From positions 11,410-75,409 of IMG/VR virus record IMGVR_UViG_2721755710_000007: 64,000 bases of DNA; one strand, written 5' to 3'. Below the pieces are notes generated by a model, which saw only the letters and a program-made list of their open reading frames with translations, had not been told where the DNA came from and did not search any database. The position numbers and the translations under genes are program-made. This document shows positions 2,236 through 24,085 of the stretch, piece after piece. This stretch comes from a virus (taxonomy: Duplodnaviria > Heunggongvirae > Uroviricota > Caudoviricetes). Each line of letters begins with the position of its first letter. The first letter of the stretch is position 1.

Positions 2236-2405
2236 AATTATGCCTCACTGTATTGACAACACAGAGCCTGAAGCTCTGACCTACTGTTTCACCCATGATC
2301 CATGCTGGGGTAATCTAACAACATTGCGCTGTGTGTAAGATGAGCAATGCGGTGATGCTGCCAACTTACTGATTTAGTGTATGATGGTGTTTTTGAGGTG
2401 CTCCA

Positions 2406-2681
2406 GTGGCTTCTGTTTCTATCAGCTGTCCCTCCTGTTCAGCTACTGACGGGGTGGTGCGTAACGGCAAAAGCACCGCCGGACATCAGCGCTATCTCTG
2501 CTCTCACTGCCGTAAAACATGGCAACTGCAGTTCACTTACACCGCTTCTCAACCCGGTACGCACCAGAAAATCATTGATATGGCCATGAATGGCGTTGGA
2601 TGCCGGGCAACTGCCCGCATTATGGGCGTTGGCCTCAACACGATTTTACGTCACTTAAAAAACTCAGGCCGCAGTCGGTAA
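2406..2681 (+). CDS. insA: IS1 InsA
   Basis: 91-aa [27 protein letters not shown], the canonical IS1 InsA. Confidence 0.9.
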
Positions 2682-3103
2682 CCTCGCGCATACAGCCGGG
2701 CAGTGACGTCATCGTCTGCGCGGAAATGGACGAACAGTGGGGCTATGTCGGGGCTAAATCGCGCCAGCGCTGGCTGTTTTACGCGTATGACAGTCTCCGG
2801 AAGACGGTTGTTGCGCACGTATTCGGTGAACGCACTATGGCGACGCTGGGGCGTCTTATGAGCCTGCTGTCACCCTTTGACGTGGTGATATGGATGACGG
2901 ATGGCTGGCCGCTGTATGAATCCCGCCTGAAGGGAAAGCTGCACGTAATCAGCAAGCGATATACGCAGCGAATTGAGCGGCATAACCTGAATCTGAGGCA
3001 GCACCTGGCACGGCTGGGACGGAAGTCGCTGTCGTTCTCAAAATCGGTGGAGCTGCATGACAAAGTCATCGGGCATTATCTGAACATAAAACACTATCAA
3101 TAA
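2600..3103 (+). CDS. insB: IS1 InsB (expressed as InsAB' by frameshift)
   Basis: 167-aa ORF overlapping insA in another frame, the canonical IS1 arrangement. Confidence 0.9.
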
Positions 3104-3118
3104 GTTGGAGTCATTACC

Positions 3119-3905
3119 CATGCAGCATTGGTACAACCTGAGCGACGGTGCCATGGAAGATGCCCTGTACGAAATCGCCTCCATGCGCCTGTTTGCCCGA
3201 TTATCCCTGGATAGCGCCCTGCCGGATCGCACCACCATCATGAATTTCCGCCACCTGCTCGAGCAGCATCAACTGGCCCGTCAATTGTTCAAGACCATCA
3301 ATCGCTGGCTGGCCGAAGCAGGCGTCATGATGACCCAAGGCACTTTGGTGGATGCCACCATCATTGAGGCACCCAGCTCTACCAAGAACAAAGAGCAGCA
3401 ACGCGATCCGGAGATGCATCAGACCAAGAAAGGCAATCAGTGGCACTTTGGCATGAAGGCCCACATTGGTGTCGATGCCAAGAGTGGCCTGACCCACAGC
3501 CTGGTCACCACCGCGGCCAACGAGCATGACCTCAATCAGCTGGGTAATCTGCTTCATGGAGAGGAGCAATTTGTCTCAGCCGATGCCGGCTACCAAGGAG
3601 CGCCACAGCGCGAGGAGCTGGCCGAGGTGGATGTGGACTGGCTGATCGCCGAACGTCCCGGCAAGGTAAAAACCTTGAAGCAGAATCCGCGCAAGAACAA
3701 AACGGCCATCAACATCGAATACATGAAAGCCAGCATCCGTGCCAGGGTGGAGCACCCGTTTCGCATCATCAAGCGGCAGTTCGGCTTCGTGAAAGCCAGA
3801 TACAAGGGGCTGCTGAAAAACGATAACCAACTGGGGATGTTATTCACCCTGGCCAACCTATTTCGGGTGGACCAAATGATACGTCAGTGGGAGAGATCTC
3901 AGTAA
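3119..3905 (+). pseudogene. insH: IS5 transposase, N-terminally truncated
   Basis: Translation [25 protein letters not shown]... matches the internal part of IS5 transposase; first ~60 codons absent. Confidence 0.85.
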
Positions 3906-4052
3906 AAACCGGAAATAACGCCAGAAATGGTGGAAAAAATAGCCTAAATAGGCTGATTCGATGTGTTTGCGGGAAAAAAATCGGCCCAGATCCGCGAAAT
4001 TTTAATCAGCGAGTCAACTTGGGAAGAAATGACCTGCTTATTCGCACCTTCC
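3119..4052 (+). mobile_element. IS5 remnant, about 260 bp of the left end missing at the IS1 junction
   Basis: Transposase reading frame begins mid-protein at the IS1 boundary; right end CTTATTCGCACCTTCC at 4037-4052. Confidence 0.85.
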
Positions 4053-4176
4053 ATAGCTGTAATGCCGTTGTATAAGGTTTCCCTGTTTGCTCATTTCCTT
4101 CTGAGCCGCTCTACAACGCTGAAGACACATTAAATAGTGAATCCAAAGTCGTATTACGTAACGGCGGCAAAACTAT

Positions 4177-4193
4177 AATTTATTAGAGCAATT
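4177..4193 (-). promoter_or_regulatory. C1 operator
   Basis: AATTTATTAGAGCAAT, 16/17 match to operator consensus (reverse orientation). Confidence 0.5.
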
Positions 4194-21286: not shown

Positions 21287-21768
21287 TGTGCCACCTCATA
21301 TTTTGAGTATTTACGGATTTTCCGTCCCAGTTTGATATATGCAGCATGATAGAATTCAAGTAATTCTCTGTAGGGTTCCAGTAATCCCTCCGTTTTTTCG
21401 ATCATTTCATATTCCCAAGACGCGTGATTAACAAAGCAGCTTTTTGAATATTTTCCGTTTTTCATCGCAGAAACCCGTTTCGACATATAGCTGGGTGCCC
21501 TGGTTTTAAACGGACTGAACTTATGCCAGGTGATAGTGACTTTTTTCGCATTACCAATTAATTCTAGTTTCGGTGCATACGAACCCAGATACTCACGTTT
21601 TAGTGTATTGCTAGGCCGGGGTAAATTAATCTCCAGATGATTCCGTTCTTTCCACTCGATCCAGTAATTTGTACACAAGTCTTCAGCCTCCTCCCGCAGA
21701 GCCTCGATTTGTGAACGCATTAAGCTGCGCGATAATTCAAGTGACTTTATTAGTTTCGAATTAGACAT
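21283..21768 (-). CDS. hypothetical 161-aa protein, first gene of two-gene operon
   Basis: ORF; lysine-rich; no recognised motif. Confidence 0.5.
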   Translation of the reverse strand: MSNSKLIKSLELSRSLMRSQIEALREEAEDLCTNYWIEWKERNHLEINLPRPSNTLKREYLGSYAPKLELIGNAKKVTITWHKFSPFKTRAPSYMSKRVSAMKNGKYSKSCFVNHASWEYEMIEKTEGLLEPYRELLEFYHAAYIKLGRKIRKYSKYEVAQ

Positions 21769-22035
21769 GTGACCTCCTGATGTGAAATCACTATACCGAA
21801 GTGGTTTTTATTTTTTTTCACAAACAGGACTTTTTTCAGTGATTTTTTTCTGAGAATTATGAGGGGCGTGTCGTTGGTGCGATGCATACCGATAGTGAAT
21901 AACACCAGATGAGCTCGGGAACGGCATAGCGGGGTGTACTTATGTTCGGCAGAAAAGTAGCTTTTTCTGCAATGGGTATTCCTGATCCGGTGATTTGAAA
22001 AGTGCTGTTTTACTTACTAAGTTATACATATATCT

Positions 22036-22197
22036 AGTGCCACTTTTTAATCAAAAGTGACCCTAGGTTTTTTGCGCATAGTGCCACTTTTTAAAAAAGT
22101 GACCCTATGTCCTGTCTACATAGGGTCACTTTTCACAAAGAAGTGACCCTATGTCGAGGCTCCATAGGGCCACTTTTCAGCAAAAAGTGACCCTATG
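22036..22197. repeat. array of eight copies of a ~14-bp motif (AAAAGTGACCCTATG) in alternating orientation
   Basis: Copies at 22036, 22054, 22080, 22097, 22121, 22141, 22163, 22185 forming four or more inverted-repeat pairs. Confidence 0.8.
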
Positions 22198-22780
22198 TAA
22201 TAGCCATTGTTAATCAATCGGAAAAATATTCATGCTAGCTCGCTCTTATCGCTAAGGTTATTGCTGCTTTCTGCCGATAACAGTGCAAGTTTTGCGATTT
22301 TTTTAAGCGCTTCACAGTTCGTTAGCAAGCTCAGTTTTTTTTGATAAAATTCTGGTCAGTTTGTTTAAAAAGTGTTACAAGTAAGGCGAATGGTTGAATG
22401 GTTAGTTTTAAGACTCAAATCGGCAGTATTAAAATTCCAAAAGTAGCTTTTCATACTTCAAAAAACCAAACTTTAATTTCATGTAGAAGAGTTGTACTAT
22501 TGTATTGACTCAAGGACAATCCGACATGTCAGAATCAGATAACATAACGCGTAACTATTACGTACCGAGGTTTCGATTATTCGTAGTTACCGTGCATTCC
22601 TAATGTTATTGCCTATCCATGATCTTCTTCGTATCAATCAGGGTCTCCACTCTTGCAACGCCGTCTATTTGGAGACGGATTTGGGACAATGACTGATAAT
22701 GCATTTGAAGTTGAAACTCGTCCGGGAAGTTTCCTCGTTCCACGTTCTTTAGGCAAAGAGATTTCCTGGGATAATTTTTT

Positions 22781-23311
22781 ATGGCTGTTGTCGATGGTGA
22801 CACTAACGTTATTCGAGAATATGACAGTGACGATGCTGACTTCGGTATTTACAATGCTGGGGAAAAAGTTACTTTACTGTGTGGCCGGGAAGACTTTTAT
22901 AATCCGACAAAAATTCAGCAGTTACGCTCTAAGTGTGTAGATATACAAAATGATTACTTTATTCAAATCTTCTTTATGTCAATGCTTGCACCTGAGTTTG
23001 TCAGCATATTTTTTGGATTAAAGCCTGCCACCGCAGATGCAATAAAAGATGTTGGCGTTTCATCACTTAAAGCAATTAACGATGTTGTTCTCTTTCCGCG
23101 AACAATTGCCTTTACGCCAGGACTGGGGGATGATAGCACTACGTTAAAATCTAAAGTATTCGCCAGGGCATACGAATTATCTGCCGACATTCGTTTGGGT
23201 AAAGTTAGTGATGACTTAATGGAACTACTGCGTTACGACACTATGTTTACGTGTCACCGTCAGGATGTGTTTAACTCATTAGCAAATAAAGTGCTCTTGA
23301 AGGATTATTGA
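22781..23311 (+). CDS. hypothetical acidic 176-aa protein
   Basis: ORF only; stops 7 bp before IS1 copy 3. Confidence 0.3.
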   Translation: MAVVDGDTNVIREYDSDDADFGIYNAGEKVTLLCGREDFYNPTKIQQLRSKCVDIQNDYFIQIFFMSMLAPEFVSIFFGLKPATADAIKDVGVSSLKAINDVVLFPRTIAFTPGLGDDSTTLKSKVFARAYELSADIRLGKVSDDLMELLRYDTMFTCHRQDVFNSLANKVLLKDY

Positions 23312-23317
23312 ATATGG

Positions 23318-24085
23318 GGTAATGACTCCAACTTATTGATAGTGTTTTATGTTCAGATAATGCCCGATGACTTTGTCATGCAGCTCCACCGATTTTGAGA
23401 ACGACAGCGACTTCCGTCCCAGCCGTGCCAGGTGCTGCCTCAGATTCAGGTTATGCCGCTCAATTCGCTGCGTATATCGCTTGCTGATTACGTGCAGCTT
23501 TCCCTTCAGGCGGGATTCATACAGCGGCCAGCCATCCGTCATCCATATCACCACGTCAAAGGGTGACAGCAGGCTCATAAGACGCCCCAGCGTCGCCATA
23601 GTGCGTTCACCGAATACGTGCGCAACAACCGTCTTCCGGAGACTGTCATACGCGTAAAACAGCCAGCGCTGGCGCGATTTAGCCCCGACATAGCCCCACT
23701 GTTCGTCCATTTCCGCGCAGACGATGACGTCACTGCCCGGCTGTATGCGCGAGGTTACCGACTGCGGCCTGAGTTTTTTAAGTGACGTAAAATCGTGTTG
23801 AGGCCAACGCCCATAATGCGGGCAGTTGCCCGGCATCCAACGCCATTCATGGCCATATCAATGATTTTCTGGTGCGTACCGGGTTGAGAAGCGGTGTAAG
23901 TGAACTGCAGTTGCCATGTTTTACGGCAGTGAGAGCAGAGATAGCGCTGATGTCCGGCGGTGCTTTTGCCGTTACGCACCACCCCGTCAGTAGCTGAACA
24001 GGAGGGACAGCTGATAGAAACAGAAGCCACTGGAGCACCTCAAAAACACCATCATACACTAAATCAGTAAGTTGGCAGCATCACC
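23318..24085 (-). mobile_element. IS1 copy 3
   Basis: 768 bp; insB 23333-23836, insA 23755-24030; same orientation as copy 2; no duplication. Confidence 0.95.

Follow-up and report, generated by a model that had tools for sequence, protein, structure and literature searches.

Does a stretch of DNA that is filed as a tailed phage, but whose P1-type backbone is interrupted by several insertion sequences (IS), still belong to a phage, and what part did these elements play in its present structure? The question is raised by the IMG/VR virus record IMGVR_UViG_2721755710_000007 (Caudoviricetes), of which positions 11,410 to 75,409, i.e. a stretch of 64,000 nucleotides (64 kb) called the window below, were compared with phage P1 (NC_005856), using blastn for the DNA and tblastn with 80 P1 proteins against the 64 kb. 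The window is a part of its replicon and the state of the remainder is read from closely related plasmids, its siblings; five related plasmids were aligned, and the flanks of IS1 were tabulated for the window and four relatives. Our results point to the window being, very probably, part of an IncY, P1-derived plasmid, a former phage-plasmid that has been eroded by insertion sequences.

By blastn, the window is a P1-type replicon, and 51 of the 80 P1 proteins tested give matches in it by tblastn. What it lacks is the interval P1 14438-42919, i.e. 28.5 kb of head, lysis, anti-restriction, tail-fibre and baseplate genes. No counterpart is found anywhere in the 64 kb, by blastn or with the P1 proteins, for 24 P1 genes from prt through pmgA, namely prt, pro, lydE, lydD, lyz, ssb, isaA, isaB, hxr, ddrB, ddrA, darA, hdf, lydB, lydA, lydC, cin, U', U, S, R, gp16, bplA and pmgA; res is likewise without counterpart in the window. 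The most telling of these losses are those of the portal protein Prt and of the head-processing protein Pro, both unmentioned in the first-pass annotation of this DNA. Both borders of the gap lie within genes. On one side, darB (10956-12802, minus strand) is reduced to the C-terminal 605 of its 2255 residues (1651-2255), plus 30 bp of P1 14407-14437. On the other side, sit (24086-25559, minus strand) is cut at P1 42920 and keeps residues 1-501 of 1140. The real junction between backbone and cargo is at P1 14437. A deletion of 2,121 bp internal to darB (P1 12286-14406, at window 12772/12773) is a separate event; no IS lies at its junction, which shows 2-3 bp of microhomology, and the undeleted state is seen in plasmid pJNQH497-2.

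The same 24 genes are absent, at both the DNA and the protein level, throughout p22Q34-2 (NZ_ON934557.1; 113,939 bp, IncY, MOBH) and p02B17002_B (NZ_JBVWFT010000002.1; 102,734 bp), two circular and complete siblings with 99.9% identity to the window. Outside the region covered by the window, these circular siblings carry resistance regions and a type I restriction system, and the siblings of the window's plasmid are multidrug-resistant and typed IncY. A complete virion and lysis set (Prt, Pro, the S, R and U fibres, BplA, gp16, full-length Sit, Lyz and holins) is thus present neither in the window nor in the two complete siblings, Sit being truncated and the others absent. It is this absence across complete circular replicons that indicates the defectiveness of the lineage, which, judging from its gene content, is almost certainly a defective prophage kept as an IncY plasmid. 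A replicon devoid of portal, head-processing protein, tail fibres, baseplate hub, endolysin and holins would be unable to finish the P1 lytic cycle alone.

The suggestion that the element is a defective or heavily remodelled phage-plasmid is therefore borne out through the siblings, as the missing genes are not found elsewhere on the replicon in either of the circular ones. The accompanying claim, that the res/mod, dar, lysis and tail-fibre region had given way to cargo, holds in part. Alignment with P1 confirms that 24 genes are gone and that darB is truncated, but lxc, ulx and the 3' third of darB are still present, and res/mod is replaced not by the IS mosaic but by a separate, non-IS module of 1.9 kb (8366-10240). 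This module has no P1 match by blastn and no IS at its borders; it holds an EAL-domain gene (8554-9243, minus strand; Pfam EAL, E = 7e-18, and sibling annotation) and a frameshifted helix-turn-helix (HTH) gene. The site at which it lies is RD-1, a general variable region of P1-like plasmids (Venturini, 2019; PMC6906374), and the replacement is unconnected with the IS copies.

The mosaic itself contains three copies of IS1, located by a repeat search followed by exact mapping of their ends. Copy 1 (2351-3118, plus strand, insA/insB frames intact) has its left inverted repeat (IRL) at the left; copy 2 (19760-20527, minus strand) turns its right inverted repeat (IRR) toward an IS2; copy 3 (23318-24085, minus strand) is joined to sit by its IRL. 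As initially described, copy 1 is thus inverted relative to the two others. The copies are identical to one another over their 768 bp, and their canonical termini (GGTGATGCTGCCAACTTACTGAT and GGTAATGACTCCAACTTATTGAT), together with open reading frames (ORFs) of 91 and 167 aa, identify them as IS1. They are 98.8% identical to the IS1 of P1, from whose allele they differ at 9 sites. A native origin of any of them, i.e. descent from the IS1 of P1, was considered and rejected, since the isaA/isaB site lies inside the deleted block, no flank corresponds to isaA/isaB sequence and the allele differs at these 9 sites.

The 9-bp flanks, given in IS orientation as IRL / IRR, are GAGCAATGC / CATGCAGCA for copy 1, CTTCTTAAG / TGCACATCA for copy 2 and CCATTGATA / CCATATTCA for copy 3. 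Exact mapping confirms that a 9-bp target duplication is present at none of the three copies, as had been claimed, nor at any IS1 copy in the four relatives. This absence argues against simple insertion, not against the identity of the elements as IS1. Matches between the flanks of different copies were also sought, as a direct match would mean recombination between copies and a reverse-complement match an inversion by intramolecular transposition. With up to one mismatch allowed, none of either kind is found in the window and the four relatives, so that single events can be deduced by comparison rather than from footprints. It was also observed that all three copies deviate at positions 202, 262, 444, 486 and 513 from their orthologues in p22Q34-2, p02B17002_B and LR883966, while the DNA flanking them is 99.9% identical between the window and those siblings. 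This five-position difference could stem from gene conversion among the copies, for which a chromosomal IS1 may have been the donor, or else from the polishing of repeats to a consensus when the record was assembled.

Comparison with the siblings gives insight into the way in which these junctions were formed. p22Q34-2 matches window positions 1-20528, 20528-23317 and 23318-64000 at 99.94-99.98% identity, and the sole differences are 7.6 kb beside the IRL of IS1 copy 2 and 881 bp beside the IRR of copy 3. The 7.6 kb lost from the window comprise, in p22Q34-2, EAL/GGDEF genes, an IS1, a phytase-like gene, a divergent IS1 and a mobH remnant. p02B17002_B shows the same pattern, with longer flanks than the window, and LR883966 has a longer mob segment; as the longer versions exist in these plasmids, the shorter state of the window is the derived one.

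In an IS1-promoted adjacent deletion, one end of the element stays fixed and the DNA beyond the other end is removed to a variable depth, without target duplication. Each of the IS1 copies has precisely one junction that is constant and one that is variable among five plasmids. For copy 1, the IRL flank is constant in all five, and the IRR side exists in three states, with 934, 120 or 0 bp of an IS5-like element left, the whole remnant being gone in p02B17002_B. For copy 2, the IRR junction is the same in p22Q34-2 and p02B17002_B and there are three different IRL flanks, the IRL junction of the window being unique. For copy 3, the sit flank (IRL) is common to p22Q34-2 and p02B17002_B and there are two IRR flanks, that of the window again being unique. 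Finally, the divergent IS1 of the siblings has a constant IRR flank and cuts mobH at three depths. Such a combination of fixed and variable ends reads as the signature of repeated one-ended, IS1-adjacent deletion, a process that would explain why the target duplications are missing; some of the steps may be due to recombination between IS1 copies. Inversion has also taken place in this plasmid family, together with independent re-cutting: LR883966 has the mob-phytase block reversed between copies of IS1, and its sit has been truncated by another IS1 variant, at a point 86 bp deeper in the gene. IS-mediated deletion and inversion, both put forward in the first-pass annotation, are thus supported, the former by the conserved-plus-variable junctions among siblings and the latter by the opposite orientation of the block in LR883966.

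The two other insertion sequences fit the initial description as well. The IS5-family (ISKpn26-like) remnant (3119-4052, plus strand, 934 bp, 92% identical to the IS5 of P1) directly adjoins the IRR of IS1 copy 1, by which it was said to be cut. About 262 bp are missing at that end, and the match of the transposase ORF to the family model begins at profile position 42. Whereas a full-length element would measure about 1.2 kb and have two ends and a 4-bp duplication, that of the window has lost this end together with its flanking 4 bp, which were removed beside copy 1. The original insertion site of the IS5-like element is P1 94517-94521. In the phage record phi456 (OR339795.1), an intact IS5-like element occupies the same site, abutting P1 94521 with no IS1 there, and its coi-side flank, ATAG (P1 94518-94521), is identical to the 4 bp that follow the remnant of the window. 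IS1 and the IS5 remnant, 1.7 kb in all, sit between coi, which starts at 2235, and the loxP/cre regulatory region (2235-4352). The P1 counterpart of this regulatory region holds the LexA-bound P2coi promoter (P1 41-68), so that this distal, SOS-controlled promoter is parted from coi across the whole lineage.

The IS2 (18315-19645, minus strand) is complete, with 1331 bp and both frames matching the IS2 models of NCBIfam (TnpB, 709.7 bits for a cutoff of 597; TnpA, 275.8 bits for a cutoff of 229). Its flanks, CAACC and ATTTA, show no 5-bp target duplication, in line with the initial claim, and it stands in place of 134 bp that are kept by the IS2-free relatives pJNQH497-2 and phi456. A pattern search also revealed that the left inverted repeat of IS2 is matched perfectly over 21 bp (12819-12839, plus strand) on the cargo side of the darB-to-cargo junction, at a distance of 16 bp. 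Several relatives follow the window to exactly 12839 and then diverge, possibly into a full IS2, and pJNQH497-2 has a diverged form of this 21-bp remnant.

The place of the lost P1 block is occupied by a mosaic of about 11 kb (12803-24085). Its first block (12840-18314; Pfam/NCBIfam matches and sibling RefSeq annotation) comprises a repA4 fragment, a toxin-antitoxin (TA) pair of the Phd/YefM-RelE type (13386-13921, plus strand; Pfam/NCBIfam) and an AIDA-type autotransporter (14781-18278, minus strand; beta-domain E = 1e-34); the toxin-antitoxin fragment is IncF-like. After the autotransporter come the IS2, a 114-bp spacer, IS1 copy 2, the remnant of a MOBH mobilisation module and IS1 copy 3. 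The MOBH remnant (20528-23317, minus strand) is 100% identical to segments of LR883966 and p02B17002_B, which are longer there at both ends. It includes a hypothetical gene of 240 aa (20564-21286), mobI (21283-21768) and a frameshifted trhR (22526-23311, plus strand), the last two names being taken from sibling RefSeq annotation, as neither NCBIfam nor Pfam recognises the mobI ORF, its 240-aa neighbour or the pieces of trhR. The window retains mobI with the DNA upstream of it (21283-22500) but nothing of the mobH relaxase gene, of which siblings keep 200-1300 bp.

The junctions of the mosaic differ widely in their distribution. The junction between the darB deletion and the cargo occurs at full length in 20 PLSDB plasmids and partially in a 21st; their sources are chickens, humans, a fox and pooled faeces. 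Being common to many plasmids of varied hosts, it is old and widespread. The junction between coi and the IRL of IS1 copy 1 is found in at least 25 PLSDB plasmids. The exact IS1/sit junction is present in PLSDB only in p22Q34-2, and outside PLSDB in p02B17002_B. The junctions 20527/20528 and 23317/23318, on the two sides of the MOBH remnant, are matched neither in PLSDB nor among complete E. coli genomes, and are referred to below as private.

The loxP-cre region had been proposed to lie inside an IS1-bounded invertible segment. loxP (4319-4352, plus strand) is an exact 34-bp match and is followed by cre (4771-5802), the Cre protein being 99% identical to that of P1. The structural basis of the proposal stands: identical, inverted IS1 copies of 768 bp flank loxP-cre, and homologous recombination between them could flip 16.6 kb or 20.2 kb. 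An isomer resulting from inversion at IS1 copy 2 was sought with a synthetic query made of 400 bp of the c1/coi flank, IS1 and the reverse complement of the 400 bp left of copy 2; among 72,556 PLSDB plasmids, none covers at least 80% of the query, and the best matches end at the IS1 end. Nor does the segment resemble a programmed invertible one, as cin is absent from the window and the repeats are whole IS1 copies. An invertible loxP-cre segment is therefore to be viewed as a structural possibility only.

All these results can be arranged in a tentative succession of events. The IS5-like element inserted between coi and loxP, as its intact form in phi456 indicates; an IS1 would then have landed beside it and promoted one-ended deletions into it. 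The interval between P1 14437 and 42920 disappeared, and its place is taken by segments derived from other plasmids, with IS1 and IS2 at the joints. This cargo could have been delivered by IS1 or IS2 transposition or by IS-mediated plasmid fusion, and repeated adjacent deletions promoted by IS1 and IS2, possibly together with recombination between IS1 copies, would have removed both the backbone and the original target duplications. Two more IS1-adjacent deletions, unseen in the siblings, appear to have followed in the plasmid of the window. Virions would no longer be made unaided, and the replicon would be maintained as a plain plasmid by the P1 RepA/Par replicon and by addiction systems.

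Several observations weigh against such an erosion of a phage into a plasmid. Only 64 kb of the replicon are visible, the absence of genes from the remainder being deduced from siblings. No pair of flanks provides the reverse-complement duplication that would prove intramolecular replicative transposition. The phage genes that are kept have remained whole and very close to those of P1 (100% identity for gp23), so that the loss could be recent, or the remaining genes may still be in use. Finally, and chiefly, the two private junctions, absent from every other record searched, and the identity of the three IS1 copies may owe their existence to a collapse of the repeats in the assembly rather than to biology.

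The last point raises the possibility that the mosaic is partly artefactual, the private junctions and the identical copies having been produced when the assembly collapsed or was wrongly joined at the 768-bp IS1 repeats. The five differences that these copies share against sibling orthologues are what consensus polishing of repeats would yield. We consider this improbable, since the other junctions (coi/IS1, IS1/IS5 remnant, darB deletion, IS2, 114-bp spacer/IS1 and IS1/sit) recur in complete plasmids assembled independently by different laboratories, and the private junctions lie exactly at IS1 termini, as they would in true IS1-adjacent deletions. The 28.5-kb loss, the cargo and the absent duplications are in any case independent of these two junctions. 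It could alternatively be imagined that the cargo entered once, as an IS-bounded composite transposon, the deletion being simultaneous and no stepwise erosion having occurred. The IRL ends of the IS2 remnant (12819-12839) and of the full IS2 do face outward around the TA/autotransporter block, and phi456 carries the same autotransporter block between IS1 copies, at another position of the backbone. Yet the IS2-bounded block has no duplication (GCTAA against ATTTA), matching flanks are found for none of the IS1 pairs, and pJNQH497-2 and phi456 carry the block without a full IS2. Above all, what distinguishes the siblings is a succession of nested deletions starting from fixed IS ends. This demonstrates stepwise change, and a single entry is therefore highly unlikely.

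The conservation of the phage genes leads to another alternative, in which the plasmid is a helper-dependent derivative, packaged with the help of a P1-like phage in the same cell, from which portal, tail fibres and lysis functions would come. The pac region with pacB, as well as lpa, capsid, sheath, tube, several baseplate genes and immunity are kept, the retained late genes are intact and 96-100% identical to those of P1, and the siblings of this widespread lineage keep lpa, pacA and pacB. A recent deletion, with no time for decay, would nevertheless give the same pattern, and plasmid maintenance, resistance genes and the MOBH module offer a simpler explanation for the spread of the lineage. 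Moreover, the siblings measure 102-114 kb, a size that we take to be at or above the P1 headful. Packaging by a helper thus has, in our opinion, a very low probability. It is similarly doubtful that the lineage as such is a helper-dependent, satellite-like derivative of P1 and that, separately, recombination still takes place between its IS1 copies, with inversion of the loxP-cre-autotransporter segment or gene conversion as the outcome; this view too is given little credit. phi456 was considered as a control, i.e. as a working phage compatible with the cargo, and rejected: although the block from prt to sit is present, its record is without pacA, dmt, ban and the baseplate and tail genes 5, 6, 24, 7, 25 and 26, and contains many IS elements in addition to the autotransporter block. 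It was deposited as a complete phage, with tiny plaques and myovirus particles reported (PMC10967188); these particles could be the product of a different prophage, or part of the genome could be missing from the record. The erosion of a former phage-plasmid into an IncY plasmid is, accordingly, the explanation that we retain.

The rest of the window consists mainly of P1 backbone. At the left, positions 1-2349 correspond to P1 92168-94516 (blastn, 97.9% identity; sibling annotation) and contain the 3' end of pacB, c1 (1064-1915, minus strand) and coi (2026-2235, minus strand). Beyond the IS5 remnant, a block with loxP, cra, cre, c8 and ref (4053-6990) corresponds to P1 94518-94800 followed by P1 1-2655; it is followed by mat (7671-8365) and, after the module that replaces res/mod, by lxc, ulx and the 3' part of darB (10241-12772, P1 9754-12285), all by blastn. 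The set for immunity and site-specific recombination is thus present, with c1, coi, loxP and cre as well as intact cra, c8 and ref. At the right, 24086-63878 is largely collinear with P1 42920-81333, with a few modules replaced or divergent (sim, rlfA/B-pmgF and par). By tblastn, gp23, gp5, gp26 and RepA are 100% identical to their P1 counterparts, and the retained late genes are 96-100% identical. The plasmid maintenance set is present, ParA and ParB being 58% and 43% identical to those of P1. The modules unlike P1 lie at 27778-29153, 32589-34818 and 40342-42717; the sim genes are replaced, and MazG-like and hok genes stand in place of rlfA, rlfB and pmgF. The dmt methyltransferase gene contains about 1 kb of non-P1 DNA (47879-48900), inserted at Dmt residues 78 / 78-79, and a Dam-family methyltransferase gene of 3.0 kb is annotated at this position in siblings. 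Lastly, ppp is interrupted at P1 81333 (window 63878). The final 123 bp (63878-64000) match DNA adjoining TnAs1 in pJNQH497-2, and this position is the border of a tet(A)-carrying resistance region in siblings.

The window offers a worked example of the passage from a temperate phage-plasmid to an ordinary plasmid, in which a few IS elements strip virion and lysis genes stepwise and stitch in cargo. The presence of the darB-to-cargo junction in at least 20 plasmids from poultry, humans and wildlife indicates that the defective form is evolutionarily successful as a plasmid. A practical consequence concerns annotation, as the label of P1-like phage overstates the content of such a contig.

The phenomenon is already known: it belongs to a described class, near-identical plasmids are public, and close relatives have been listed. 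P1-like phage-plasmids have been described to become plasmids through gene loss and gain of mob/oriT functions (Pfeifer and Rocha, 2024, Nat Commun; PMC10879196). Supplementary Dataset 7 of that study lists LR883966, LR130553, CP034590, CP029493, CP063477, CP068592, CP070027 and other relatives recovered here as P1-derived plasmids, and the row of LR883966 indicates 0 connector genes. A relaxase or oriT is present in 30 of the 38 P1-derived plasmids, and is thus frequent but not obligatory (PMC10879196). With 51 of 80 P1 proteins matched and its connector, lysis and tail-fibre genes gone, the window falls, on this gene content, into the class, for which the paper uses a criterion of 75% of gene families. 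It shares with the class the P1 subgroup-1 backbone, the RepA/Par replicon, the loss of connector, lysis and tail genes, a putative gain of mob/oriT type and, in its siblings, the gain of resistance genes; unlike the class, it lacks the mobH that its siblings partly keep, and has two private IS1-adjacent deletions. A second precedent is provided by pTZ20_1P and pSvP1, which have lost C-segment, tail-fibre, baseplate and tail-tube genes through IS (Venturini, 2019, Sci Rep; PMC6906374). The likeness extends to a truncated sit, inversions between IS copies, the lack of direct repeats by mobile elements and the replacement of res/mod at RD-1, whereas the elements involved there are IS26 and ISEc84, with other cargo and other breakpoints.

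The nearest relatives, p22Q34-2 and p02B17002_B, share with the window, at 99.9% identity, the P1 breakpoints, IS1 copy 1, the IS2, the IS1/sit junction, the darB deletion and the cargo, and differ from it by their IS1 allele. As for the mechanism, IS1-promoted adjacent deletion is here deduced from the comparison of natural plasmids, and recombination between IS1 copies may explain some of the steps. Finally, phage P1 itself shares with the window a collinear backbone of 96-99% identity, including loxP-cre, c1, repL, repA, gp23, gp22 and the baseplate genes 5-26, from which the window is set apart by the loss of prt through pmgA, of res/mod, of sim and of rlfA/B-pmgF, by its diverged ParA and ParB and by the disappearance of the isaA/isaB IS1 site.

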